A DNA stretch of 57,581 bases from Candidatus Micrarchaeota archaeon (lineage in GTDB: Archaea > Micrarchaeota > Micrarchaeia > Anstonellales > Bilamarchaeaceae): the NCBI GenBank assembly GCA_018812625.1, contig JAHJDH010000031.1, positions 1 to 57,581 of the forward strand, read 5' to 3'. A program made the translations under genes and the position numbers. Under the pieces are notes generated by a model that was not told where the DNA came from, ran no database searches, and was given only the letters and a program-made list of their open reading frames with translations. Every line of letters starts with the position of its first letter. The stretch's first letter is position 1. Of this stretch, positions 9,037 through 47,342 are shown piece by piece.

Positions 9037-9567
9037 ATGAAACAAAAGACTCAAGAATCAAGATCAAAAAACTCAAACAAAAAACCAAAAGGAAGTTTTG
9101 GAACAGAACAATCGCCAAAAGGCATGCATGAAGGGAAAATTGATCCACTTGTTACATCTGAAGGGAGGCTTCTTCACAATCCAGTTGGAATCGATAATAT
9201 GCATATTTTATGCCAAGACTTCCTGGGAGTAGGATCAGCATCAAAAGGCAAAGTGGCCGAATCGACAGATGTTTTGGAAGATGATAGTCCTAGACATATG
9301 AGATTCGTTGAATGTGTTCTTGAAGGTGGTGTCACTGAAAATCGTGATCTTGCAGTTATGCCTGGAGGTACAAGAAAAGCTTTTCTTTCACATTACAAAG
9401 TGGAATTGACTGAGGGTACTACAAAGGAAGATTTTGCTAGATTTCTAAATGAACTAGGTATTGATGATATGCCTAAGCTTTCTGATCTCACATATGTCAT
9501 GTTACTTCGGGCTCAGGAGGCTGGTCTTGTTGAGCTTAGATATGAGCATGATATACTCCCAATCTAA
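9037..9567 (+). CDS. Chimeric orphan protein
   Basis: Basic leader, a 28-aa segment shared with the C-terminus of 26058..27980, and a domain shared with 4923..5561. Confidence 0.7.
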   Translation: MKQKTQESRSKNSNKKPKGSFGTEQSPKGMHEGKIDPLVTSEGRLLHNPVGIDNMHILCQDFLGVGSASKGKVAESTDVLEDDSPRHMRFVECVLEGGVTENRDLAVMPGGTRKAFLSHYKVELTEGTTKEDFARFLNELGIDDMPKLSDLTYVMLLRAQEAGLVELRYEHDILPI

Positions 9568-14293: not shown

Positions 14294-14692
14294 ATGGGAA
14301 ACATTGCATATTTTGAGATACCAGCAGATGATATTGAGAGAGCCAAGAAATTCTATATGGCAGTTTTTGGCTGGGATATAAGGAAGTTTGAGATGGCAGG
14401 CGTAGCCCCAAATTATCAGTCTGTCATGACTGGTGAACCAGTTACAGTAAAAGGACCAGGTTATGAGATGAGCCAATTGAATTCTGGCGGGATGAGCCAA
14501 AGAATGTTTCCAAACCAGCCGATAACAAGCTATGTGCAAGTAGATAATGTTGATGAAATGCTTGAAAAAGTAAAGACAAGTGGCGGCAAGCAGCATGGGG
14601 AGAAGATAAATATTCCAAATGTCGGCACCATAGCTTTCATAAATGACAGTGAGGGCAATGTCCTTGGTCTTTGGCAACCTATGAGAATGTGA
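14294..14692 (+). CDS. VOC/glyoxalase family protein
   Basis: YFEIPADDIERAKKFY..VFGW...GG...DSEGNVLGLWQ. Confidence 0.9.
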   Translation: MGNIAYFEIPADDIERAKKFYMAVFGWDIRKFEMAGVAPNYQSVMTGEPVTVKGPGYEMSQLNSGGMSQRMFPNQPITSYVQVDNVDEMLEKVKTSGGKQHGEKINIPNVGTIAFINDSEGNVLGLWQPMRM

Positions 14693-14734
14693 AATTAAAA
14701 ATATTGCTGTTGATCTACTATCTTGGGGATGTAC

Positions 14735-14956
14735 ATGAAATTTGGAATAACAGTTGGAAATACCGACAGGATGATAAGATATGTTGTTGCAGCTATTCTT
14801 GTTGTAGCTGGCATTTTCTTCCTTGGCTCACCACTGGATCTTGTGGCATATGCTGTTGCTTTGATTCTTGTTGTGACTGGCTATACCAAGGTGTGCGCAC
14901 TATATTCTGTGCTTGGGATCAATACTCTTGGGAAGGATAAAAAAGCCAAGAAATAA
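14735..14956 (+). CDS. DUF2892 (YgaP-like) membrane protein
   Basis: VGNTDRMIR...TG..CALYSVLGINT. Confidence 0.85.
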   Translation: MKFGITVGNTDRMIRYVVAAILVVAGIFFLGSPLDLVAYAVALILVVTGYTKVCALYSVLGINTLGKDKKAKK

Positions 14957-14987
14957 TTCTCATATTATCAGTCATTTAGGTATTATA

Positions 14988-15317
14988 ATGAGGATTTGGG
15001 ACATAGAACCATCAAAACTATGCAGAGAGCACTTGCTAGGTGAACACAGAGAACTGCATGCAATATGGTCCATACTTACCAAAGGAAAGAAAGGCTATTC
15101 GCAGCATCCTGAAACAAAAAGATGGAGGGGAAAGCTGCTTGCACTCTACAAACGACATCAGAAACTAGTTGCTGAAATGAAAAAAAGAGGCTATAATCAT
15201 AAGAGTGATCTGGATTATTCCCTTGCCAAAGGCGGAAGAGTTCAAAATGATTATGTAAATTCATACAGTGAGCAGATCGAAATCCTGAGAGGAAAAAAGT
15301 GCGGCTGTAAAGTTTAG
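14988..15317 (+). CDS. Pyrimidine-dimer DNA glycosylase / T4 endonuclease V-like protein
   Basis: MRIWD..P..LCREHLLGEHRELHAIW...HPET..W...EM.KRGYNH. Confidence 0.8.
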   Translation: MRIWDIEPSKLCREHLLGEHRELHAIWSILTKGKKGYSQHPETKRWRGKLLALYKRHQKLVAEMKKRGYNHKSDLDYSLAKGGRVQNDYVNSYSEQIEILRGKKCGCKV

Positions 15318-15396
15318 CTACTATGAAAACTGCAACCGTGAAGCCAAGAGGCAAAATTCCAAAATGAAACTAATTGTTTCATTGATTGCCAACTGA

Positions 15397-16641
15397 CTAG
15401 TGCCTGAAGAAGAGGTATGCGCTAAAGAGCACTATTACTATGAATACTCCTGCTAATGCCACCTCCAGAGAAATCATCTGTTCTTCAGTTTTTTCTACTG
15501 TTTCCGGGCTCTTGGAAATAACAGGATCTGGAACTGTCTCATTTTGAGTATCATTTAAGGTTTCATTCATAACTGGCGGAGGAAGTATGACAGTCTCATT
15601 TGATTCTTCCTTCACGCAAGTGTCGTTTTGGACAAGATAATCTTCAGGACAGCCACACACAGATGCCTTTTCTATTAATTCCCCATCTGCATTGCAATAG
15701 TAGGATAATGAGCAGTTGCCAATCGGTGTTCCGTCAACACATGACTCATAAATACAGCTCAAGGTGATTGGATCATAGTAAGCGTTGTCAGGACAGCCAC
15801 AGATTTTCGCGCTCTTGATTAATTCAGCCTTCTCATTGCAGTAGTATGGCTTGTTTGTAGAGCAGCCTCCCTTTAAAGTTCCATCCGAACAGGTGTTCTG
15901 GGACACTTCTGAGCAGTATGCGCTTGTTGCATTGAAAAGGCACTTTGCCTTGCCGCACTCATTCATAAATATGTGAACCCATGCATTATCTTCGCAGCTC
16001 TTTCTCATCACAGAATTCGTCTCGCTATCGCAGTAGGAAATCTCTCCCTCAGAGCAGCCATTAGCGTAGCTTATCCAGCTCGGAGTTCCGCAGAGGTCTG
16101 GCTCGTACTTGAGAATCAGATTGTCATCCGAGTCATCAATGCACCGATAAGGCCTGGTGTATGAACATTTCCTTTTTCTTGTGCCATCCAGGCAGTATTC
16201 AAAGCTCACATCTTCAATCAAATCGCAGGAAAGCTTGGACCAGTAGCCTGAGGAGGTGAAGGATATATTATGACCTTCGGTGATGATGCTGAAGCTCTCG
16301 CCATCTTCCTTCATATTGAAAACCTCGACAACTTCGAAGTCTCCTGCAGATTCTCTGGTGACTACGAAATTTGCAGTGAATTCTGTTGGCCTCTCATCGA
16401 TACATGATGCTGAGCACAAGTCTGATGAGTCAAATCCAACCAGGTAGATTCTTGTATAATTAAATATTTCAACGTGATCGTATAATGAGATGCTCTCGGT
16501 CTTGACTGGAACGAATACGCTCGGAGAAAGATGCTCATTTACAGATACATCTACATAAACATCAATCACATCTGCTTCGCAGTTTGTTGCGAAAGCTGCA
16601 CTAGCCAATAGTAACATTATGAACAGAATTCCCGCTTTCAT
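15397..16641 (-). CDS. Cys-rich repeat surface protein, signal peptide plus C-terminal TM anchor
   Basis: MKAGILFIMLLLASAAFA signal; repeats CxDGT..G.CS..YYC....L...A..CGCP; NET sequons; C-terminal TM. Confidence 0.8.
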   Translation of the reverse strand: MKAGILFIMLLLASAAFATNCEADVIDVYVDVSVNEHLSPSVFVPVKTESISLYDHVEIFNYTRIYLVGFDSSDLCSASCIDERPTEFTANFVVTRESAGDFEVVEVFNMKEDGESFSIITEGHNISFTSSGYWSKLSCDLIEDVSFEYCLDGTRKRKCSYTRPYRCIDDSDDNLILKYEPDLCGTPSWISYANGCSEGEISYCDSETNSVMRKSCEDNAWVHIFMNECGKAKCLFNATSAYCSEVSQNTCSDGTLKGGCSTNKPYYCNEKAELIKSAKICGCPDNAYYDPITLSCIYESCVDGTPIGNCSLSYYCNADGELIEKASVCGCPEDYLVQNDTCVKEESNETVILPPPVMNETLNDTQNETVPDPVISKSPETVEKTEEQMISLEVALAGVFIVIVLFSAYLFFRH

Positions 16642-16821
16642 AGATGTGTGTTGTCTGCTAATGGTTTTATATGTTTGCGAGAGTTCATTGATCAAGCAAA
16701 GAACATGACTTTCCTTGAAATAAAGCACATATAACTAATTATGTAAAAGTGTCCAGAATGCATTTTACATCTTTTTACTAAAATACACACACATATATAC
16801 AAGGTCTGTCCTAATATATAA

Positions 16822-17337
16822 ATGAAAAAATTCCATCCAACTTATGCAGAAACATCGGGTTATCGCGGATCAACCCAAAATAAGCACCGATTGAGCGGCA
16901 GTGAAGCAGCCACGCTCCGAAATTCAGTGCTTGTAAGGGACCATCACAAATGCTCATATTGCAATTTCCATGGAGAGAAATGGCAGGAAGTAGGATATGT
17001 TGACGGTGATTCAAGTAATAATAAATTAAACAACTTGACCACAGTCTGCCCTATGTGCAATCTCATACTCAATTCTGGTTTAGGATGTCAGATCGAAAGT
17101 ATTGTAGAGCTTTATAAGAGCTCAGAGTACAATCAGAACAAGATAGTCCAGATAACGAGGAAAATGAGAAGTAATGGGAAGAGCGATATTAACATAATCC
17201 GAGTTCTGGGTCTGAAAGACAAAGTACCATTCAAGAGAAACAAGAAGTACCTAAGCGTTCTTTTTGCATTTGTAACTTCGTGGAAAGGCTCATCTGGCGA
17301 TGTGGAAGAAGCTTTGCGCTATGGATACATTGGTTAG
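16822..17337 (+). CDS. HNH-fold Zn-binding protein, degenerate active site (DotN/IcmJ-like)
   Basis: VLVRDHHKCSYC...QEVGYVDGDSSNNKLNNLTTVCPMCN. Confidence 0.75.
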   Translation: MKKFHPTYAETSGYRGSTQNKHRLSGSEAATLRNSVLVRDHHKCSYCNFHGEKWQEVGYVDGDSSNNKLNNLTTVCPMCNLILNSGLGCQIESIVELYKSSEYNQNKIVQITRKMRSNGKSDINIIRVLGLKDKVPFKRNKKYLSVLFAFVTSWKGSSGDVEEALRYGYIG

Positions 17338-17380
17338 TCAAAACTACTAGTTTTATTTATGTTTTTTGTCATATCAAAAC

Positions 17381-17530
17381 ATGGAAGTCTGCCCGAAATA
17401 TGGAAAACCAGTGGAAGCTAAAGATCACATGCCACTAGCTGGCTCCAGGCCAATTAGCCAGATAGAATGCAGCTGCGGGTATTACGGGCTGCCGGTTCAG
17501 CTTGAACCAGAGGATTCAAAAGGAGATTGA
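17381..17530 (+). CDS. Small degenerate Zn-ribbon peptide, possibly a pseudogene; paralog of 11360..11740
   Basis: MEVCPKYGKP...IECSCGYYGLPVQLE; second Cys replaced by Tyr. Confidence 0.5.
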   Translation: MEVCPKYGKPVEAKDHMPLAGSRPISQIECSCGYYGLPVQLEPEDSKGD

Positions 17531-17814
17531 GAAATAGTAAAAGAATATTGGAAATGGAGATTTCATAGTAATAGCTCTTTATTCAGAGGACATCTCAGTA
17601 GTAAGTAGATCAATCAAAGAATTTGACTGTCCTTAGAATATCATTCAGAATGTGGATCTCCACAGTATCCTTCAACCAAATATTAAATAGAACAATTGCA
17701 TTATTTTATGTAATAGAAAACAGGAAAAGATTGTGGTAATATATTGATTTGTGGTATAATTAAATAATGTAAGCGTTATAAATGATTAAGGAATAGGAAT
17801 AATTAGGTGTTCTG

Positions 17815-19095: not shown

Positions 19096-19434
19096 ATGGA
19101 AGTAAAAGAATATATTGAAAAGCAAAAATCCCCTCGAAAGGAGATTCTCAAAAGGCTGAGGAAGATCATCAAGGCCACATTTCCAAAAACAAAAGAAGAA
19201 ATGCGCTGGGGCGTTCCTGTTTTTGAAGATGGGAAGTTCTACGTTGTCGGCCTGAAAGACTCTGTGAACCTGGGCTTTTCAGTCCAAGGTTTAACCAAGA
19301 AGGAAATGGACAACTTCCAGGGAAAAGGGAAAACCATGAGGCATCTCAAGTTCAAGTCCCTTGAAGAAATCGATGAGAAGAAGATAGTCAAGCTCATGAA
19401 GATGGTCCAGAAGAAGGCTAAATGCGAATGTTAA
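19096..19434 (+). CDS. DUF1801 (YdhG-like) protein
   Basis: V.EYI...ILKRLRKII...EEMRWGVPVF...VNLGF...GKGKTMRHLK. Confidence 0.85.
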   Translation: MEVKEYIEKQKSPRKEILKRLRKIIKATFPKTKEEMRWGVPVFEDGKFYVVGLKDSVNLGFSVQGLTKKEMDNFQGKGKTMRHLKFKSLEEIDEKKIVKLMKMVQKKAKCEC

Positions 19435-19495
19435 AATAGTTTTAGAAATACTAAAAGGATATTGGAAATCGGTATTTATGAATAAATTATTTTTT

Positions 19496-20569
19496 TTATT
19501 TTTCAATTAAGTTATTTACCCAATCAACTGCTCCAGAAAAAATGAAATTTTCTTCGGTTAATTTTGGAAAAACTCTTTTGTAGGCAGTTATTAGTTCCTT
19601 TTGTGATGCCCTTTCCTTAGGACTTGTGATTATGAAGATCTCTTTATCCCACAATGTTTCCGTAAATAAGAATTTTGCAGTTGCATCAGTTAATGGCATG
19701 GAATAACCTACAAAAGTTATCTTTGAAGAATCTTGAAGTGTCTTGCGAGCCAATGACCAAATGAGATTAATTATTTGTTTTTCTGAAATCTCTGCTTTAC
19801 CTAAAGTAGGAGGAATAATCATAGGCTTTTCATCCAAATGATAATCTATTGAGCTATATGGTATGACTTGGCCAGTATATGGAGAAACATTTTCTTTACA
19901 CCAGTTCTCCTTATGCACTAGAGCGTCTATGGGAAGACTCCGCCTATCATATCCTTTTTTGACATACCAATTAACCGATCCGTGTAATTTTAATAATTTC
20001 ATAGCAGTGGTGTCCTGTTCAACTAATGAATCCATTACCATTGAAGTCGATGGCCTACAAAAAAATCCATAACCACCATCAGGATGCCAATATGGTTTTT
20101 TCGCTCCATCTGAACCCAAATCCATAACTGGATTGAGTTTATGTAATTCTTCATCAAAAAGATCATCGTAATTAAATGTAACACAATCCACACTGTTTTT
20201 AAAACAATAATCTGCCAACTCCTTAAAAAGAACTGAGTTACTCGATTCTCTTTTAATGTTATTTATTTTATTAATTAGAAAATCCTCAATTGAATCCAAT
20301 AACACTCCAAGTTCATTTCTTTCGCTTGGTTTATCATAAGGCATTTTAGATACTAATCTCGTCATTAAATTTTCTATATTTATCTTTCCATCTTCCGACA
20401 ATCTTTTCTCTGATTCATATATGGAATGTGAATATTTTGATACCTTCAAAAGCGGACCAATCTTATTTTCTAATTCATCAGTATCCATCCTAAGTAATGG
20501 TGCATCTGGGAAAAATGCTTTTGTTAAGCCTGCACCGAAGATAAATGTTTCTTTGTCGGATTTGCTCAT
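19496..20569 (-). CDS. SIR2-like (SIR2_2) domain protein, putative defence NADase
   Basis: FIFGAG, VTFNYD, LLKLHGSVNW, IIPP, FVGYSM. Confidence 0.85.
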   Translation of the reverse strand: MSKSDKETFIFGAGLTKAFFPDAPLLRMDTDELENKIGPLLKVSKYSHSIYESEKRLSEDGKINIENLMTRLVSKMPYDKPSERNELGVLLDSIEDFLINKINNIKRESSNSVLFKELADYCFKNSVDCVTFNYDDLFDEELHKLNPVMDLGSDGAKKPYWHPDGGYGFFCRPSTSMVMDSLVEQDTTAMKLLKLHGSVNWYVKKGYDRRSLPIDALVHKENWCKENVSPYTGQVIPYSSIDYHLDEKPMIIPPTLGKAEISEKQIINLIWSLARKTLQDSSKITFVGYSMPLTDATAKFLFTETLWDKEIFIITSPKERASQKELITAYKRVFPKLTEENFIFSGAVDWVNNLIEK

Positions 20570-20894
20570 GGCTATAATTGGCTCTAGAGTTAATTAAAAA
20601 CCAATACAATACAATTTCATGATTGGATTTGTCCTTTTAATTGGCATAAAAAAACATACCATCTAAGTAAACCAAAATAATTCACACACCGATACGGTAA
20701 ACTGAAAACACACTAAAAACACCCAAATCCATTCTTTTGGGCAGTTTACCCCGCGTAAGCCTACTTGCGCGATCAGGCTTTGCAACTCCATATTGTATAA
20801 GTAAACCATGACCCAAAAAATGTGTTTTTGCTAAATTGTTGGGTTTACTTATATGGTTATTAAACGGTTAAATTGGTTTACTGTATGGATATTA

Positions 20895-21221
20895 TTATTG
20901 ATTTTTAGTTCCCCAGTGCTCGATCCTGTAGAGAGCTTCTGTACAAAGCAACTTGGATCTTCGCTCAGTAACTGATATTGGAAGGATGTTGTCGCCAAGA
21001 TTATTGCCCATACCACCCATCTCAACATGATTAAATCCTTCACACTCTGCTTTAAATCTGGCAAACTCTGCTCTTTGAGAAGGAACTATTAATCTCTGTG
21101 GTGGTGGATAACCGCTAAGAAAAGCAACCCCCCATAATGCTGTAACAACTGCCGCAGTTTTTGCTGCAAAAAATAAGTGTTTACGATTTGTTTCTTTTTT
21201 ATCAGTTTTTGTTTTCTGCAT
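20895..21221 (-). CDS. Orphan with basic leader and signal/TM segment
   Basis: MQKTKTDKKETNRKHLFFAAKTAAVVTALWGVAFL; TATA about 25 nt upstream. Confidence 0.6.
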   Translation of the reverse strand: MQKTKTDKKETNRKHLFFAAKTAAVVTALWGVAFLSGYPPPQRLIVPSQRAEFARFKAECEGFNHVEMGGMGNNLGDNILPISVTERRSKLLCTEALYRIEHWGTKNQ

Positions 21222-21363
21222 TATATATTTACTCATCCAATATTTATAAAACTAACTTTTTGTCCCATTATTTATCACAATCAACTAATACTCCATTTCA
21301 CCCAAATAGGTTAGCCCCCAGAGCCAAAACAGGCCAAAAGAATGGATTCATCGTCGAATGATT

Positions 21364-21627
21364 TTAGTTTTTCCTTGTGCGATCACTTTTGGCAGCTTCA
21401 ATTCTTCCAATTTCATCCATTATTTTCCGATCCAGATCTTCCGGAGGATCTGGTGTCATTTTCTTTAATGTTTCTTTGACTAAACCTTCCAACTCCCGAA
21501 ACTCCTGAATTTTCTTTTCTGTTAACGGACGCAATTTACCATCAAAGCGCTTGTAAGATCTTGTTGAATCTGGATGAGTGCATTTCTTTTTACTGAGCCT
21601 GGCAGTTATATTATCTTTTTGATTCAT
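21364..21627 (-). CDS. Small orphan protein
   Basis: Upstream region related to that of 20895..21221. Confidence 0.55.
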   Translation of the reverse strand: MNQKDNITARLSKKKCTHPDSTRSYKRFDGKLRPLTEKKIQEFRELEGLVKETLKKMTPDPPEDLDRKIMDEIGRIEAAKSDRTRKN

Positions 21628-21868
21628 AAATAGTTTATTCAATTAATATATTTAATACATTCCTTTTTTATCCATATATAATAACTTATTAAATATGACT
21701 CTTTGAAACCAATTAGTAGGCCTCCAGACCCAATAAAGGCCAAAAGAATGGAATAGCAAAATTTTATCGACGTAGAGAATTTTTCTGAAATTGAAAAAAA
21801 TTACTAACAGTGTGTTTGTGTGATAAAAGAGACAAAAACACATAAACTTTGGCTTAGCAAAAACAAAA

Positions 21869-22345
21869 ATGGAAATTAGAAAAGCGAAAAAATCTGATTT
21901 GGAAGAAATTTTCGCGCTTGGTTTTAAATTGCTAAAATATCACATGCAATACAATGATTATTACAAACCAGTAAAATCAAAAAAAGAATTCAAATCTGGC
22001 CAGAAAAAATATTTTACTGAACAGCTGCAAAAAAGAAATTCACTTTTCTTGGTTTTGGATGATGATGGGAAATTGGCTGGTTATTCAATTGCCAAAGTTA
22101 CTGCTAATCCTCCAGTTCTTAGGGAAAAGAAACGCGGTGAATTTGCCGAGATCTTTATAGATGAGAAATATCGCGGTAAAGGATGGGGCAGCAAGATGCT
22201 TGAATATAGTTTAGCATGGCTTAGCAAGAAAAAAATCAGGCAGATTGTCGTCAAGTATGATGCAAAAAATCAATGGGCAGAAAACCTATACAAGGATGCG
22301 GGGTTCAGTCCATTTCAGAATGAATATGAGTTAATTCTTAAATAG
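21869..22345 (+). CDS. GNAT acetyltransferase
   Basis: MEIRKAKKSDL...FIDEKYRGKGWG..ML...N..A.NLYKDAGF. Confidence 0.9.
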   Translation: MEIRKAKKSDLEEIFALGFKLLKYHMQYNDYYKPVKSKKEFKSGQKKYFTEQLQKRNSLFLVLDDDGKLAGYSIAKVTANPPVLREKKRGEFAEIFIDEKYRGKGWGSKMLEYSLAWLSKKKIRQIVVKYDAKNQWAENLYKDAGFSPFQNEYELILK

Positions 22346-22363
22346 ATGGTGACTACAAAAATA

Positions 22364-22380
22364 AAAATGTAGTCACTACA
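22364..22380. repeat. Left 17-bp inverted repeat flanking the Fic gene
   Basis: AAAATGTAGTCACTACA, exact reverse complement of 23323..23339. Confidence 0.85.
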
Positions 22381-22383
22381 TCA

Positions 22384-23313
22384 TTACCTCGTTTTTAATC
22401 TCTTATATTCTCTTAAAATCAATTTCAGCATTGGTTTAATGTTTTGATTTTTTTGGTATGACTGAAGTGCAGCATAATATGATTTTCGATTCTTTAATTC
22501 AATATTAACTGGTGGAAAGTTATGTTTAAGTAGGATATTTATTAGCAGCAATCTCCCCACTCTGCCATTTCCATCTTCAAATGGATGAATATTTTCAAAT
22601 TGATTATGGACAATTGCAGCTAATACAAGTGGATGATAATTCCCTTTATTTTCATCATACCATTTCACCAATTCCTTGAGAAGAGAAGTTACCTGGGCTG
22701 ATGGCGCTCCTCTATGGACAACTCCACCATAACGATCTAGTACTGCAACTTCTTTTCCTTTACCCCTAAAATTACCTGCGAAGGATTTGGAATTTTGAAA
22801 CACGATTTTGTGCAATTTTTTAATTAATTTTAAGGAAAGATGCTCATTTGCCTTCCTTACATATGAAACAGCACCAGCAACCCCATATGTTTCGGAAATT
22901 TCCCATTTTTCTTTATCTGGCCATTGATTTTTCTCTAGAATTCCTTTGACCTCATTCTCAGATACTGTGGAGCCTTCAATTGCATTAGTATCATAGGTAA
23001 ATGCTTCTGTAAACTTTAGCCAATTATCTTCACTTAAATGATGGATATTAATCTTTCCGTTTACTATGAGTGTGTTTAATTCTTCCTTTTCATCATTTGA
23101 AAGAACAGTCTTGTATGGATCAGAAATTGATCCGATATCTCTGAGCATTATCTCTAATCTGGATTCTGCTGCATTTCTCTTTGATTCTATTTCTTTTATG
23201 GATAAATTAGAGCCCAGGTAAATTCTGATTTTTTTAATCTTCTTTCCTTCTCTGTAAGATTGAGCAAGGTAGTATAATGTTGCATTCCCTCTTTTTCTTT
23301 TCTCAATATACAT
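22384..23313 (-). CDS. Fic-domain protein with internal inhibitory helix (class II-like)
   Basis: HPFEDGNGRVGR active motif; TNAIEG matches (S/T)xxxE(G/N). Confidence 0.92.
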   Translation of the reverse strand: MYIEKRKRGNATLYYLAQSYREGKKIKKIRIYLGSNLSIKEIESKRNAAESRLEIMLRDIGSISDPYKTVLSNDEKEELNTLIVNGKINIHHLSEDNWLKFTEAFTYDTNAIEGSTVSENEVKGILEKNQWPDKEKWEISETYGVAGAVSYVRKANEHLSLKLIKKLHKIVFQNSKSFAGNFRGKGKEVAVLDRYGGVVHRGAPSAQVTSLLKELVKWYDENKGNYHPLVLAAIVHNQFENIHPFEDGNGRVGRLLLINILLKHNFPPVNIELKNRKSYYAALQSYQKNQNIKPMLKLILREYKRLKTR

Positions 23314-23322
23314 TGAATGAAT

Positions 23323-23339
23323 TGTAGTGACTACATTTT
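23323..23339. repeat. Right 17-bp inverted repeat flanking the Fic gene
   Basis: TGTAGTGACTACATTTT. Confidence 0.85.
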
Positions 23340-23410
23340 ATAAATATTCCTTTAAATGTGACTACATATGCCAAGTCATCTCTTCATCAAAGTAACTTAC
23401 GAACAAAAAA

Positions 23411-24391: not shown

Positions 24392-25390
24392 TTATGCTCT
24401 TCTTCTTGGTGGGGGAAGCCTTCTTTCCTCTTGTGGTGCGATCACAGTAGGATCAATCATGCTTCTTTTTGGGTTTCGAATTCTTGGCTGATATTGCCTT
24501 CTAATATCTATCTTATGGTCGCTAAGCAACCTGTAGAGATGTTCATCATTAAGGATAGTTGCCATTGGCAATGTCTCGCTATGTCTGCTTCCATCTCTCT
24601 CAATATATCTCACTTCAACAGAATCATCAACTGCCCTAAATGCATGGCTATAATCAGCATATGTTTCTTCATGAGAAACATAGTTTACTGATTGTACTCT
24701 TGGATGATATATGCAAACAGTTCTTCGAGCTACGGTCTCACGATGATAAATAATATCTTTTTTATGTCCTGCTCTAAGTACGTCAGAAACTCCTGGGATA
24801 TTGGGATTTTCCGGGTTGTCTCTTCTCATTCGCTCATGTTCGGCTTCGATTTGCTCTTGTATCATCTTGTTCTGTTCTTCAGTAAACTGCGGGGACATCA
24901 TCCATTTTCCTTCATAAGCTCCATATTCTCTATGATTCCATCTTGCGCTGACTCTTTTTTGAGTCTCAGGATCTATGACTCTTTTGGCAATATCTGGAGC
25001 AGCATTGAAATCCATATGTCCAGTACTGCCAAGTCCTGCCTGCTCATCCACAATATCAACTATTCTGGAAGTTGGAAGAACCCAGCCAAAATGATCAGCA
25101 AGTCTTCTTGCTAGCAGAGGAGACATTGGAACTCTAACATAATCACCATCACTGCCAATTGCAAAATAATCAGGAGCAACGCGAACCCTCATCTCAACTT
25201 GAGCTCCATCTATTACTCCTGAAACTGCTATTTCATAAAAATTCTCAGGCCTCATAAAACTTGGCATATTTCCTCTGATTGCTTGCTGAAATATACGCTC
25301 TTCAATCTGTGGCTGGGAAAGATTTCTGACACTTGCTATGAACTGTCTTCCAGTCATGTCGTCTTTTACTCGAGGCGGTGGTGGAGGCAT
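24392..25390 (-). CDS. Uncharacterised protein of a mainly bacterial family (PDY.AIGSD / AGHKKD / YADYSH motifs)
   Basis: APDYFAIGSDGDYVRVPM, LPT.RIVD, LRAGHKKD, H..TYADYSH. Confidence 0.75.
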   Translation of the reverse strand: MPPPPPRVKDDMTGRQFIASVRNLSQPQIEERIFQQAIRGNMPSFMRPENFYEIAVSGVIDGAQVEMRVRVAPDYFAIGSDGDYVRVPMSPLLARRLADHFGWVLPTSRIVDIVDEQAGLGSTGHMDFNAAPDIAKRVIDPETQKRVSARWNHREYGAYEGKWMMSPQFTEEQNKMIQEQIEAEHERMRRDNPENPNIPGVSDVLRAGHKKDIIYHRETVARRTVCIYHPRVQSVNYVSHEETYADYSHAFRAVDDSVEVRYIERDGSRHSETLPMATILNDEHLYRLLSDHKIDIRRQYQPRIRNPKRSMIDPTVIAPQEERRLPPPRRRA

Positions 25391-25476: not shown

Positions 25477-25965
25477 TTATCTTTTTCTTTTAGACTTCTT
25501 TTTCACTGTTTTCTTAGCTGCTTTTTTCTTAACAACCTTCTTCTTAGTTGTTTTTTTCTTCGTAGTAACTTTCTTCTTGACTGGTTTCTTAGCTGCTTTT
25601 TTCTTTACAGCCTTCTTCTTAGGTGCTTTTTTAGCTACTTTCTTCTTCGGAGCCTTCTTTTTAACAGTCTTTTTCACTGTTTTCTTAGCTGCTTTCTTTT
25701 TAGCAACTTTCTTCAGAGTTTTTTTCACTGCCATTTTTTTAGCTTGTTTTTTCTTGTGATCCTTTTTGACAACAGAAACCCTACTTTCTATTATTCCCCG
25801 ATGGAATTTTGTATCTAGTTGTGTAACTACCTCTTCATATTGATCAGAACTAACATCCATGGTCTTGGAACTACCACAACGAGAACAAAGAAATTGACCA
25901 TTGATGTAATCGATGGGACGAGGCAATTTCCCACAACCGGCACAAATTTCGATTGTGTCTTCCAT
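25477..25965 (-). CDS. Zn ribbon fused to a histone-H1-like Lys/Ala-rich tail
   Basis: CAGCGK...FLCSRC then about 90 aa of KKAAKK/KKTVKK repeats. Confidence 0.8.
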   Translation of the reverse strand: MEDTIEICAGCGKLPRPIDYINGQFLCSRCGSSKTMDVSSDQYEEVVTQLDTKFHRGIIESRVSVVKKDHKKKQAKKMAVKKTLKKVAKKKAAKKTVKKTVKKKAPKKKVAKKAPKKKAVKKKAAKKPVKKKVTTKKKTTKKKVVKKKAAKKTVKKKSKRKR

Positions 25966-26057: not shown

Positions 26058-27980
26058 CTATCTTACACCAAGGAATTCCAGGCCCAAAATAAGCCTATTG
26101 TCAATTCCAACTGCATTATGAAGAAGCCTTCCTTCAGATGTAACATATGTTCCAGCATATCCATGTTCATCAAATAGTTGGGACTGGAATGTTGGAGCTC
26201 TTCTGTTTCTGCCATAGAACCTCATGGTTTGATCAAGTGCATCACCAGGGCCCCGATAAAGATTACCATAATCCAGAAGATCTGTTTCTCCATCAGGCAT
26301 TCCGATTGCAACAACATGTGGTCCATTTGGCGTATTTATTGAAGCAACAATTGTTGGAACTCCATTTGCCCTCATAAATTCAGCCATGAGATGGTGTATT
26401 CCAGCACATACAGCAACTCCATTTCTAAGATCTTCTGGAAGTGGAGTTCCGCTGGAATGTGTTGAATAAAATTCAGTGTATCTTTGCAGATATCCAAACA
26501 TATGAGACATTGTTGCATTTGAAATCCTCTCAACATCCGGATTCAGGAAATCTGTATTGTTTAATGCATCCTGAACTCCATTGGCATAAGCAACCTGTTG
26601 CATGAACGCACCCATGAATCTGGCAGTTGTTATTACTTCGTTTACAGGTGCCCCATCATAGAGTGTGGAAAACTCTTGGATTGAACCTGCTGATCTAATT
26701 CTGCTTTTAGCAAGATTTACTTGTGCGTCTATTTCCGGATTTCCAGATCTTCCAAAGCCATAAACTCCTGGATTTTCTGCTGTTGGGAAATCTGTTTCAG
26801 CAAATTCAATATCTCCTGCTTGTAGATGTTCATATGTAAAAGTATTTGTTGAATTAAATGATTCTCCACCAAAGACAATATTGAGTCCAACCATAACCAT
26901 AGGGTCCCATCTGCCTCCTAGGAACTCTGACCAGTGTGTTGCTCCACCACCAACATAAACATCTCCTTCAACAGTATCGCTGAAGTTTATTGTCCTAGTT
27001 ATTCTTGCCCCAACTCTTTGATTGATTCTTCCGTATTCTCCAAATAACCTGGCAGTATACTGATCTTCTAAGAAACGATATTGTGCGCCAAATTCAATAC
27101 TCTGGAATTCTGGTCTGTAGTGGCCAAAATATGCAGTTTTTATTGGATCTGGTGCTGCAAAATAAAAGTTTGGCATACCATAGATCATGAAGTTGTGAAT
27201 TTCAAGAGAAAGTCCAGTTGCCAGATTAAGGTAAATATCATCCCATTTTGGATATGATAATGCCCCTCCGATTACTGCTCCAAGCCTAAGCCTGGCATTT
27301 TCTCCAAGTGGCTGAGAATAACCGAATCCAACTGAATGAGAAGTATACAAAACAGATGGCATATTTCCAAGTGCTGCAACGCTTCCATAATAAGCTAATT
27401 TGAATCTCCAGAAATTAACTGAAGGCCTGATCATCAATCTTGCAAATGGAGCTGCTTGTGGACCAAACCAGATATTCCCCCCATCAAACCTTATATCAAG
27501 AGGCCTTGGAGTACTTCCGCTTCCGCGAAGACTGTACATTACAGTACCAAAAACCGCAGAGCCTGCTTCATTTGCATAAACGTTTCCTCCGAGATCCCAG
27601 GCATTATCCAAACTAATGGACCTTCTGCGTCCGGAAATGTTCACTTCAGTTGAAAACGGAGAAAGTTCTCTGTCACTATAATCAATTTCTGCTTCGGCTT
27701 CAGCAGCATCAATATGTGGCCGAAGCTGCAAATGTAAATCTCTTGGAGGCTCAACATCAGTCCTTTCCTGAGGCTCTTCCTCAGTAGGTTCTTCAGCTCT
27801 AGGAGCTGGTTCTGCTGGCCTTGGTTCGGTTTGTTCAACAGGATCAGGAACAGTAGCATCTTGAGCATGAGCAATATTTTCTTTTAATGGAGAAAATGCA
27901 ACAACAGTAGCAGCAATTGCAGCAACTGCAAGTTTCTTAATTTTTGACGGTTTCCTCTGATTTCTGTTAAGCTTCTTCAT
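26058..27980 (-). CDS. Secreted protein: predicted beta-barrel-like domain plus transglutaminase-like domain
   Basis: Signal ending AHA-Q; amphipathic aromatic beta-strands; GVAVCAGIHH...GPHVVA...LLDYG Cys-His-Asp. Confidence 0.7.
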   Translation of the reverse strand: MKKLNRNQRKPSKIKKLAVAAIAATVVAFSPLKENIAHAQDATVPDPVEQTEPRPAEPAPRAEEPTEEEPQERTDVEPPRDLHLQLRPHIDAAEAEAEIDYSDRELSPFSTEVNISGRRRSISLDNAWDLGGNVYANEAGSAVFGTVMYSLRGSGSTPRPLDIRFDGGNIWFGPQAAPFARLMIRPSVNFWRFKLAYYGSVAALGNMPSVLYTSHSVGFGYSQPLGENARLRLGAVIGGALSYPKWDDIYLNLATGLSLEIHNFMIYGMPNFYFAAPDPIKTAYFGHYRPEFQSIEFGAQYRFLEDQYTARLFGEYGRINQRVGARITRTINFSDTVEGDVYVGGGATHWSEFLGGRWDPMVMVGLNIVFGGESFNSTNTFTYEHLQAGDIEFAETDFPTAENPGVYGFGRSGNPEIDAQVNLAKSRIRSAGSIQEFSTLYDGAPVNEVITTARFMGAFMQQVAYANGVQDALNNTDFLNPDVERISNATMSHMFGYLQRYTEFYSTHSSGTPLPEDLRNGVAVCAGIHHLMAEFMRANGVPTIVASINTPNGPHVVAIGMPDGETDLLDYGNLYRGPGDALDQTMRFYGRNRRAPTFQSQLFDEHGYAGTYVTSEGRLLHNAVGIDNRLILGLEFLGVR

Positions 27981-28045: not shown

Positions 28046-28681
28046 TTAATTTTTCTTTGCCTTAAGTTTTTTGTTTATTTTGGATGCAAATTCAAGATAA
28101 TCCTCGAGAAAATCATTCATGCTATCTAGCTTAATTTCTTTTGACGGTGGTTTTTCATCCTTAAAGCGGATATTGACAATCATCTTCAAAATGCCATGAG
28201 TATTGCATAATCGAATGAGAACATATTCTTTGTTGAATTTGGAAATTTCTCCTTTTATAGAATTTAGAAACTGTTTGTCTCCAGAAACAGAATACTCATT
28301 TAGCCATCCCGAGCCTACATTAAGAATCTCAAATTTCTTTGTATTGTCGTTGCGTACACAAAGTTCATAATCTACAGAAAATGACTTTTCTACCTTTCCA
28401 AGTAAAAATGATTTATAGTAAAACTCTTCTCCATCATACTCAAAAATCAGCCTTCCAAAAGAAAAGAAATCCGATTCCCAAGAGGTTATTTTTTTGATTT
28501 TTGAAATGGATTTTTCAAAATCCTTGATCTTTCCAATATTTCTCACGAAGATAAGTGCAAATATAAGAACTGAGAATATAGCTACTTGAGTGTATCCATA
28601 AAAGATTGATATTGCAGGAACTAGCAGAAGCAGGAAACTGAATAATAAAAATTCAAAAACAAAGTATGGATAATGTTTCAT
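28046..28681 (-). CDS. Membrane protein, 2 TM plus soluble domain
   Basis: Likely start MKHYPYF at 28681. Confidence 0.65.
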   Translation of the reverse strand: MKHYPYFVFEFLLFSFLLLLVPAISIFYGYTQVAIFSVLIFALIFVRNIGKIKDFEKSISKIKKITSWESDFFSFGRLIFEYDGEEFYYKSFLLGKVEKSFSVDYELCVRNDNTKKFEILNVGSGWLNEYSVSGDKQFLNSIKGEISKFNKEYVLIRLCNTHGILKMIVNIRFKDEKPPSKEIKLDSMNDFLEDYLEFASKINKKLKAKKN

Positions 28682-28712
28682 TGAAAATAGAACAAAATCA
28701 ATTTTTATTAAT

Positions 28713-28877
28713 CTATTCTTTTGCAGTTCCTGCATCAACCATGTGTTTAAACATCTGATATGGGACTACAACACACACATTGCACTTGCAATCTTGACAG
28801 ATAAAATCATCATTTGAATTGCGCCTTATTTTTCCGCAGTTTGCACAAATTTCAACTACATTCTTCAGTTTGTTCAC
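28713..28877 (-). CDS. Small Zn-ribbon protein, 54 aa, GTG start
   Basis: VEICANCGKIRRNSNDDFICQDC; abuts the DHS-like stop; not in the ORF track. Confidence 0.65.
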   Translation of the reverse strand: MNKLKNVVEICANCGKIRRNSNDDFICQDCKCNVCVVVPYQMFKHMVDAGTAKE

Positions 28878-45748: not shown

Positions 45749-45807
45749 AAATATTCGTTTCTATGCACACGCATTCCATTATCTTGATGATGTGATTATC
45801 AAAATTT

Positions 45808-47342
<1,535 letters not shown>

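Follow-up and report, generated by a model that had tools for sequence, protein, structure and literature searches.

A predicted outer-membrane-type beta-barrel joined to a transglutaminase-like module in a protein family of Micrarchaeota

Organization of the gene and of its product

The DNA analyzed here, hereafter the window, is a stretch of 57,581 nucleotides from a Candidatus Micrarchaeota archaeon (assembly GCA_018812625.1, contig JAHJDH010000031.1, positions 1 to 57,581), and the subject of this work is a gene on its reverse strand (26058..27980, -), which starts with ATG, encodes a protein of 640 amino acids followed by a stop codon and represents the window copy of a Micrarchaeota-type family. 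The layout of the protein comprises a signal peptide, a Pro/Glu spacer, a stretch of some 258 amino acids made up of amphipathic strands and, at the C-terminus, a Cys-His-Asp domain. The window is archaeal DNA: it harbors a complete archaeal small-subunit (SSU) rRNA gene (45807-47342, -), a deoxyhypusine synthase gene directly upstream of the gene of interest, and genes coding for a class V fructose-1,6-bisphosphatase, a ribonucleotide reductase and a class I Glu/Gln tRNA synthetase. The G+C content of the gene is 0.412, compared with 0.378 for the window. A recent transfer was considered on the basis of this composition and rejected, given that most of the excess is due to the Pro/Glu linker, which alone reaches 0.483.

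The first 39 residues (27864..27980, -) have the features of a Sec-type signal peptide, with a predicted cleavage site at AHA|Q (residues 37-40). The first 16 residues include eight Lys or Arg and no Asp or Glu, the hydrophobic core begins at residue 17, and residues 13-29 form a helix in the structural model described below. All 45 aligned homologs matched, with a loose regular expression, the three-part pattern of basic n-region, hydrophobic core and small-x-small motif (mostly A-x-A-Q/E), and no second helix-like hydrophobic segment was found in the protein, the highest 19-residue Kyte-Doolittle mean outside the leader being 1.52. The leader is followed by an acidic spacer rich in Pro and Glu (residues 40-100; 27681..27863, -), with 13 Glu and 11 Pro among the 60 residues from 41 to 100, which is predicted to be disordered, with a predicted local distance difference test (pLDDT) score of 38-51. 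As judged from alignment gaps, the spacer differs in length among family members, some of which contain an additional insert of about 100 amino acids. This insert (alignment columns ~130-260) is mutually conserved in four of them (P0009, P0014, P0018 and P0032) and, from its sequence, looks like a small folded domain.

Prediction of a beta-barrel

The region that follows (residues 128-385; 26826..27599, -) contains 15 long, antiparallel and amphipathic strands and is predicted to form a beta-barrel resembling those of outer-membrane proteins (OMP). AlphaFold2 was run on an alignment of 45 sequences with no templates. The full-length model has a mean pLDDT of 86.6 and a predicted template modeling (pTM) score of 0.81, and the five models obtained are alike, with mean pLDDT values ranging from 84.1 to 86.6. 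The strands are 10-16 residues long, the loops that join them span 2-13 residues, and pLDDT lies mostly between 94 and 98 throughout residues 128-385, after which the model presents an alpha/beta domain (residues ~400-640). Immediately before the barrel, a conserved segment (residues 101-127; 27600..27680, -) is confidently modeled with isolated beta-bridges only, and may correspond to a lumen or rim segment or to a 16th strand.

Comparison of the full model against the PDB with Foldseek yielded 17 matches at E ≤ 1e-3, with probabilities of 0.9-1.0. The matches listed are all transmembrane barrels or complexes that include one (LptD, VDAC, BamA, TamA, OccD2, PorV, KdgM, BtuB, FimD, LamB and TOM) and would indicate only a resemblance in fold class, not kinship. 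The nearest named language-model neighbors of residues 100-395 in the Atlas are clusters of bacterial OMPs (Porin_4, OMP_b-brl, IAT_beta, DUF6666 and NfrA_C; scores 0.89-0.91), and we regard them as leads, not as tests.

Analysis of the strands across the family points in the same direction. The period-2 hydrophobic moment of residues 128-385 is elevated (z = 3.0, with 1 of 1000 shuffles as high), the C-terminal domain giving z = -0.3. When the alternate residues of each of the 15 strands were split into two faces across the 45 homologs, the hydrophobic content was found to be 70% on one face versus 31% on the other, which is rich in Gly, Ser, Thr and polar residues. The hydrophobic face, comprising some 97 positions, is the more variable of the two (1.74 versus 1.08 bits; Mann-Whitney p = 2.6e-8), and columns conserved in at least 90% of sequences number 10 on this face and 32 on the polar/small one. 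The region as a whole contains 16.7% Phe, Trp or Tyr, 12.8% Gly and 1.2% Lys, and the positions of its strands are conserved in sequences down to 40% identity. Because the hydrophobic face is variable and the polar/small face is conserved, the data fit a lipid-facing exterior surrounding a conserved lumen, whereas the packed core of a soluble protein should show the reverse; as read from the alignment, then, the strand pattern appears to be that of a lipid-facing barrel and not that of a soluble one. Furthermore, the strong conservation of the lumen face, together with the confidence with which residues 101-127 and the C-terminal tail are modeled, suggests that the barrel is plugged and acts as an anchor rather than as an open pore. 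A separate, single-sequence screen of the beta moment in the open reading frames (ORFs) of the window was set aside as non-discriminating: it ranks the gene product first (0.394), with ordinary proteins reaching 0.379-0.388.

A putative, divergent transglutaminase-like module

A junction (residues 386-413; 26742..26825, -), with the almost invariant motif P-G-x-Y-G-F-G-R-S-G and invariant G405, Y407, G410 and G413, leads from the barrel to the putative enzyme module (residues 414-612; 26145..26741, -), which is composed of a helical subdomain and a transglutaminase-like core. The candidate catalytic triad is made up of C525 (26406-26408, -), H555 (26316-26318, -) and D570 (26271-26273, -). The first two are invariant in all 45 sequences, and D570 is conserved in at least 90% of them, the exceptions shown being Asn or Ser. 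A model of residues 395-640 in isolation, based on 20 sequences (pLDDT 84), has LapG, a transglutaminase-like cysteine proteinase of bacteria, as its best Foldseek match (E 0.018-0.026, probability 0.92-0.93), followed by transglutaminase, putative cysteine proteases, CPR-C4, vasohibins and arylamine N-acyltransferases, over an E range of 0.018-0.25. Sub-threshold matches to the Pfam family Transglut_core (PF01841) were obtained for 20 of the 45 members, the best with E = 6.7e-4. On the combined strength of the weak fold matches and the invariant triad, we read the modeled module as a divergent Cys-His-Asp transglutaminase/papain-like fold, and a peptidase or transamidase would be a more likely identity for the putative enzyme than anything else.

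The protein ends in a conserved two-helix tail (residues 613-640; 26061..26144, -) with GVR at its C-terminus. The pLDDT of this tail is 96 in the full model versus 43-65 in that of the isolated domain, the underlying alignments having 45 and 20 rows, respectively; this difference, suggestive only, would mean that the tail is probably packed against the barrel.

Most of these elements had been proposed in a first-pass annotation made from the letters and their translations. The basic leader and hydrophobic signal ending at AHA-Q and the Pro/Glu linker that it described are present, its strand region of about 250 amino acids comes to 258, and the seven peptides that it quoted as strands all fall inside strands of the AlphaFold2 model (211-224, 229-243, 249-261, 289-303, 308-317, 337-350 and 358-371). 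Its Cys-His-Asp pattern corresponds to the triad conserved across the 45 sequences, and the AlphaFold and Foldseek analysis that it recommended produced the 15-strand model and the transmembrane barrel matches reported above. The central claim of that annotation, an outer-membrane-type barrel followed by a transglutaminase-like domain in an archaeon, finds support in the model, the fold search, the family-wide strand statistics and the language-model neighbors alike.

Distribution of the family

A word-indexed search returned 61 relatives, with identities of 40-99% and mostly of full length, none of which carries a Pfam domain. Organism names are attached to ten of them, eight being Micrarchaeota, Micrarchaeia or Bilamarchaeum (a member of the class Micrarchaeia), one 'ainarchaeum' and one 'bacterium'. 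An exhaustive profile search against 1.84 billion representatives identified 113 proteins at E ≤ 1e-3, and hence the family is small and lineage-restricted; 45 of these proteins lie at E ≤ 1e-30. Among the distant relatives are P0098, P0100, P0103, P0109, P0117 and P0133, and single-linkage clustering of the distant matches was uninformative, placing nearly all of them in one group.

We also scanned a genome collection with two peptide patterns, the junction motif among them, a procedure that divergent copies can escape. All 20 loci recovered lie in archaeal metagenome-assembled genomes (MAGs), of which 18 are labeled Micrarchaeota, Micrarchaeia or Bilamarchaeum, one 'archaeon' and one 'ainarchaeum'. 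The gene at one of these loci (L001), on a 215-kb contig of a Micrarchaeota MAG (CAVRPK010000003.1), is 99% identical to that of the window, and some MAGs contain two copies, as illustrated by L012 and L013, which stem from one isolate. Being vertically conserved and syntenic across MAGs, the gene is not a contaminant. The MAG with locus-tag prefix GY852, labeled 'bacterium', encodes both a core member of the family (P0046, with 52% identity to the protein of the window) and a divergent paralog that likewise combines barrel and enzyme (P0111). This bin probably belongs to the Micrarchaeota and has been left unclassified or assigned wrongly.

Relation to known systems

The most instructive comparison is with an unnamed family of metagenomic proteins (P0117, P0133 and some 27 further clusters), in which a signal peptide is followed by an enzyme module and then by a strand-rich C-terminal region. 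According to hhalign, residues 417-631 of the window protein align with positions 99-286 of this family with a probability of 97.8% (E 1.3e-12, 187 columns), the helical part included, whereas the strand-rich parts of the two do not align. The families have a homologous enzyme module in common, and both possess a signal peptide and a barrel-like region rich in strands, but the enzyme comes first and the barrel-like part last in the P0117 family, and this order is reversed in the window protein. In addition, 24 of 29 members of the P0117 family end in Phe or Tyr preceded by an alternating pattern, the arrangement that constitutes the classical beta-signal of bacterial OMPs. From these alignments, the pairing of one enzyme module with barrel-like regions in two orders and in two lineages suggests a recurrent functional association.

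With bacterial OMP barrels of 14-18 strands (PorV/FadL-like, OccD, BamA/TamA) the window protein has in common the signal peptide, the predicted antiparallel amphipathic meander and the richness in Gly and aromatic residues. Unlike them, it has no sequence-family match and no aromatic beta-signal, its barrel is not the C-terminal domain, its loops are short on both sides and its source is archaeal. The succession of signal peptide, barrel and C-terminal functional domain is also that of inverse autotransporters (type Ve, intimin/invasin), and the IAT_beta cluster of the Atlas scores 0.89. The barrels of inverse autotransporters, however, have 12 strands as opposed to the 15 modeled here, and rely on the bacterial assembly machine; moreover, the window protein has no PF11924 match in Pfam, and its C-terminal part is enzyme-like alpha/beta instead of Ig-like or lectin.

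As regards the enzyme, the order and spacing of Cys, His and Asp (C525, +30 H555, +15 D570) are those of LapG and Transglut_core proteins, and LapG is the best fold match, but the module of the window protein falls below the Pfam cut-off and differs in its extra helical subdomain, its C-terminal tail and its fusion to a barrel. When the whole protein is compared with the Atlas, the nearest cluster is that of Spirochaetota 'transglutaminase-like domain-containing' proteins with DUF2715 (PF10895), at a score of 0.81 that serves only as a lead. Compared by this embedding score only, the cluster would be another fusion of an enzyme and a barrel, with a barrel that is much smaller, since DUF2715 proteins appear in a list of predicted surface-exposed beta-barrel OMPs of Treponema, with four loops (PMC13749626).

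A proposed barrel-anchored surface enzyme

Transmembrane beta-barrels count as a distinguishing trait of the outer membranes of bacteria and of the organelles derived from these, and a predicted one is unexpected in archaea. The explanation that we favor, to which we assign a probability of roughly 0.55, is that the modeled protein, specific to DPANN archaea of the Micrarchaeota type, is exported and acts at the surface as an enzyme anchored by its barrel. The Sec signal peptide would carry the protein across the cytoplasmic membrane, and the acidic Pro/Glu spacer, variable in length, would act as a stalk. Residues 128-385 would then fold into a porin-like beta-barrel of 15 or 16 strands, with its variable hydrophobic face in lipid and its conserved polar/small face lining the lumen, an orientation suggested by the family statistics. 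Conserved segments of the same protein would probably fill this lumen, making the barrel a membrane anchor and not an open channel, and the barrel would hold the Cys525-His555-Asp570 transglutaminase-like enzyme at the membrane surface. The enzyme itself would most likely be a LapG-like cysteine peptidase or a transamidase that cuts or cross-links surface proteins. With the beta-signal of bacteria missing from the C-terminus and no Omp85 gene seen in the ORFs scanned, insertion may be self-driven or depend on some other factor.

Several observations weigh against this explanation. As counted by DSSP, the number of strands is odd, whereas OMP barrels normally have an even number, and the TM-scores of the Foldseek matches reach only 0.15-0.25 when normalized by the query and no more than 0.55 when normalized by the target. 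OMP family matches are absent from Pfam (none of the 45 members at E ≤ 1), from NCBIfam and from a profile search of the PDB. Among the aromatic-majority columns of the hydrophobic face, seven of 16 lie exactly at strand ends and 13 of 16 in the outer half, a placement, as seen at the level of sequence only, that is compatible with aromatic girdles and does not prove them. The C-terminal residue of the window family is Arg in 51 of 62 members and Phe, Trp or Tyr in just four, the query itself ending in GVR. On the enzyme side, the Transglut_core match of the query (16.7 bits) is below the 23-bit cut-off, and the isolated domain gives no Foldseek match at E ≤ 1e-3, with unrelated folds mixed in at low probability. 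No Omp85/BamA-type gene or other OMP family was detected in the 60 ORFs of the window and 34 ORFs of five related loci, which amount to a small part of a genome. Nor does the gene context help, and an operon-based assignment of function was rejected, the context being a conserved housekeeping backbone in two clades that provides no partner. Finally, the cultured Micrarchaeota Ca. Micrarchaeum harzensis A_DKE as well as Microcaldus variisymbioticus ARM-1 are described as having a single membrane and a surface layer (S-layer) (10.1101/2021.04.28.441871; PMC11329633).

Competing explanations

Among the alternatives, the one that we consider least improbable is that of a soluble barrel, secreted or associated with the S-layer, which might serve for instance as a lipid-carrying or scaffold domain joined to an extracellular cysteine peptidase. 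We know of no machinery for transmembrane beta-barrels in archaea, which speaks for such a protein, as does the fact that the orientation of the faces derives from sequence and not from the coordinates of the model; a lipid-holding barrel is also conceivable given that DPANN archaea must get lipids from their hosts. The hydrophobic face is nevertheless the variable one and the polar/small face the conserved one, which is the reverse of a conserved hydrophobic core. The roughly 97 positions of the hydrophobic face would, if turned inwards, line a cavity far beyond a packed core, and both the fold matches and the language-model neighbors are all membrane barrels. It may also be that there is no barrel, and that AlphaFold2 has forced an amphipathic, beta-rich region into one, the fold having been obtained with a single method, 45 sequences and no templates, and having an unusual, odd number of strands. 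The high pLDDT (94-98) over nearly the whole region, the similarity of the five models (84.1-86.6), the agreement of fold-independent sequence statistics with the model and the conservation of strand positions down to 40% identity make such an artifact highly improbable.

If the barrel is real and resides in lipid, it could be an OMP of the archaeon itself, which would imply that the clade is diderm and that the enzyme lies on one side of that outer membrane. All the evidence for the barrel (model, Foldseek, faces and Atlas) applies equally here, the Pro/Glu spacer would suit a stalk that spans a periplasm, and early cryo-electron microscopy studies (Comolli 2009 and Baker 2010, both cited by 10.1101/2021.04.28.441871) read ARMAN/Micrarchaeota cells as having an inner and an outer membrane. 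We still consider this option unlikely: only one barrel family, sometimes in two copies, and no Omp85 or other OMP family was found in the DNA examined, and both cultured Micrarchaeota studied by electron microscopy have S-layers, that of A_DKE being documented by a PF05123 S-layer protein and by freeze-etch images (10.1101/2021.04.28.441871; PMC11329633). Neither A_DKE nor ARM-1 is among the 20 loci of the two-pattern genome scan, which can miss divergent copies, and therefore their S-layer data need not apply to the clade. A further possibility is that a diderm bacterium, either host or prey, is the intended recipient and that the protein inserts into its outer membrane, as might be argued from the bacterial style of the barrel in the Foldseek and Atlas comparisons and from the fact that the nearest enzyme-module relatives outside the Micrarchaeota have as fusion partners barrels that end in a Phe/Tyr signal of bacterial type. 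This scenario seems to us very unlikely, however, inasmuch as the protein lacks the beta-signal read by the bacterial assembly machine, no bacterial relative of the barrel part was found among the 1.84 billion representatives, and the sole relative labeled 'bacterium' shares its locus-tag prefix with a core member of the family. Furthermore, the hosts named for cultured Micrarchaeota are archaeal, namely Thermoplasmatales and Metallosphaera (10.1101/2021.04.28.441871; PMC11329633).

Target membrane and significance

The first-pass annotation had framed the location of the barrel as a choice between an outer membrane of the archaeon and that of a bacterial host. Neither option is established: the cultured species are S-layered, their hosts are archaeal and no Omp85 was present in the ORFs scanned. 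For a barrel-anchored surface enzyme, the cell membrane of an archaeal host and the symbiont's own membrane, entered from outside, are equally open as targets. In ARM-1, the S-layer is described as lying 11-16 nm from that of the host, with host-derived nanotubes connecting the two cells (PMC11329633), and a Pro/Glu spacer of at least 60 residues could, to judge by its length, bridge roughly the envelope distances quoted. Provided that the barrel is embedded in lipid, we lean tentatively, at somewhat less than even odds, towards the membrane of the host at the point of contact with the symbiont; an outer envelope layer of the archaeon itself appears doubtful, and entry from outside into its cytoplasmic membrane slightly more so. 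Of all the options, a bacterial host has the least support, and nothing that we found points to one.

No description of this family, or of any Micrarchaeota beta-barrel, was found in the literature among the matches listed. The parts are already known, a porin-like barrel and a transglutaminase-like enzyme, and they are also joined in the bacterial-looking P0117 family; the novelty lies in an archaeal family that is conserved and inherited vertically and that lacks the sorting signal of bacteria. It is tempting to postulate, although we hold this broader claim only tentatively and with less confidence than that of a barrel-anchored enzyme, that this is the first conserved archaeal family of lipid-embedded, porin-like barrels, working without Omp85 or a beta-signal and planting a cysteine enzyme in a host membrane or in the archaeon's own outer membrane. 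If true, the family would constitute a test case for barrel insertion without BamA or a classical beta-signal, a marker protein for the question of a second membrane versus an S-layer in ARMAN/Micrarchaeota, and a candidate molecule at the physical interface between DPANN symbionts and their hosts. In any event, the prediction of a transmembrane barrel makes the question of the Micrarchaeota envelope directly testable.

Genomic neighborhood and minor observations

Two gene orders surround the members of the family. In the first clade, a deoxyhypusine synthase gene is followed at some distance by the genes coding for a 230-amino-acid protein, the barrel-enzyme protein, a zinc-ribbon protein and, further on, a 332-amino-acid protein. 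In the second, the succession is that of a DEAD-box helicase, the barrel-enzyme protein, an ABC-2 transporter and an amino-acid permease. The upstream neighbor in the window, the 230-amino-acid protein (28046..28738, -), has a hydrophobic N-terminal part and no family match, and a BLAST match to it adjoins the homolog in eight of the 20 loci, this synteny being confined to one clade. The zinc-ribbon gene (25477..25965, -), with two C-x-x-C pairs, lies 92 bp downstream in the same orientation and is found directly downstream in 15 of the 20 loci. In the window, in L001 and in L002, its product extends into a long tail rich in Lys and Ala; most other loci have a ribbon ORF of about 100 amino acids followed by a separate Lys/Ala/Glu-rich ORF. 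The 332-amino-acid protein (24392-25390, -), without family match or signal peptide, is conserved downstream in the main clade, and is doubled in L006 (13914-15814), L010 (13394-15532) and L013 (2859-5484), the copies being adjacent in L006 and L010. Searches of Pfam, NCBIfam and the PDB with these three neighbors (332-amino-acid, zinc-ribbon and 230-amino-acid proteins) yielded no family.

The tail of the barrel-enzyme protein has a counterpart elsewhere in the window, where a 27-amino-acid copy of the motif (9151..9231, +) is encoded within an ORF of 176 amino acids (9037-9567) that has no signal peptide or Pfam match. This copy is detected by hmmsearch with E = 7.5e-8, is identical at 21 of 27 positions by BLASTP and shows a nucleotide identity of about 85%, third codon positions included; from these values, the 3' end of the gene appears to have been copied recently within the genome. 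Fragment paralogs of the enzyme module recur in other genomes, as indicated by four metagenomic proteins (P0102, P0108, P0145 and P0159; 153-326 amino acids, without signal peptide) that contain only the part of the enzyme after the His, from the D-Y-G-N region to the tail, together with unrelated sequence.

Comparison of the window at ~19400-23400 with L001 at 14544-17538 reveals strain-level variation, even though the barrel-enzyme gene is 99% identical in the two: a gene with a Fic/DOC domain (22384-23313) and an ORF of 357 amino acids (19496-20569) have no counterpart at this place in L001, where the genes flanking the position of Fic are 116 bp apart. Three Micrarchaeota loci, L015 (14560-15450, -), L016 (7051-7944, -) and L018 (11979-12875, -), encode proteins of about 297 amino acids for which Pfam gives weak matches to regions 2 and 4 of sigma-70 (E 1e-5 to 2e-9); such matches are odd for archaea, and these may simply be helix-turn-helix proteins. 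Lastly, the SSU rRNA gene of the window stands isolated, with no large-subunit or 5S rRNA matches across the 57.6 kb, and ARAGORN reports no tRNA genes in the whole window.

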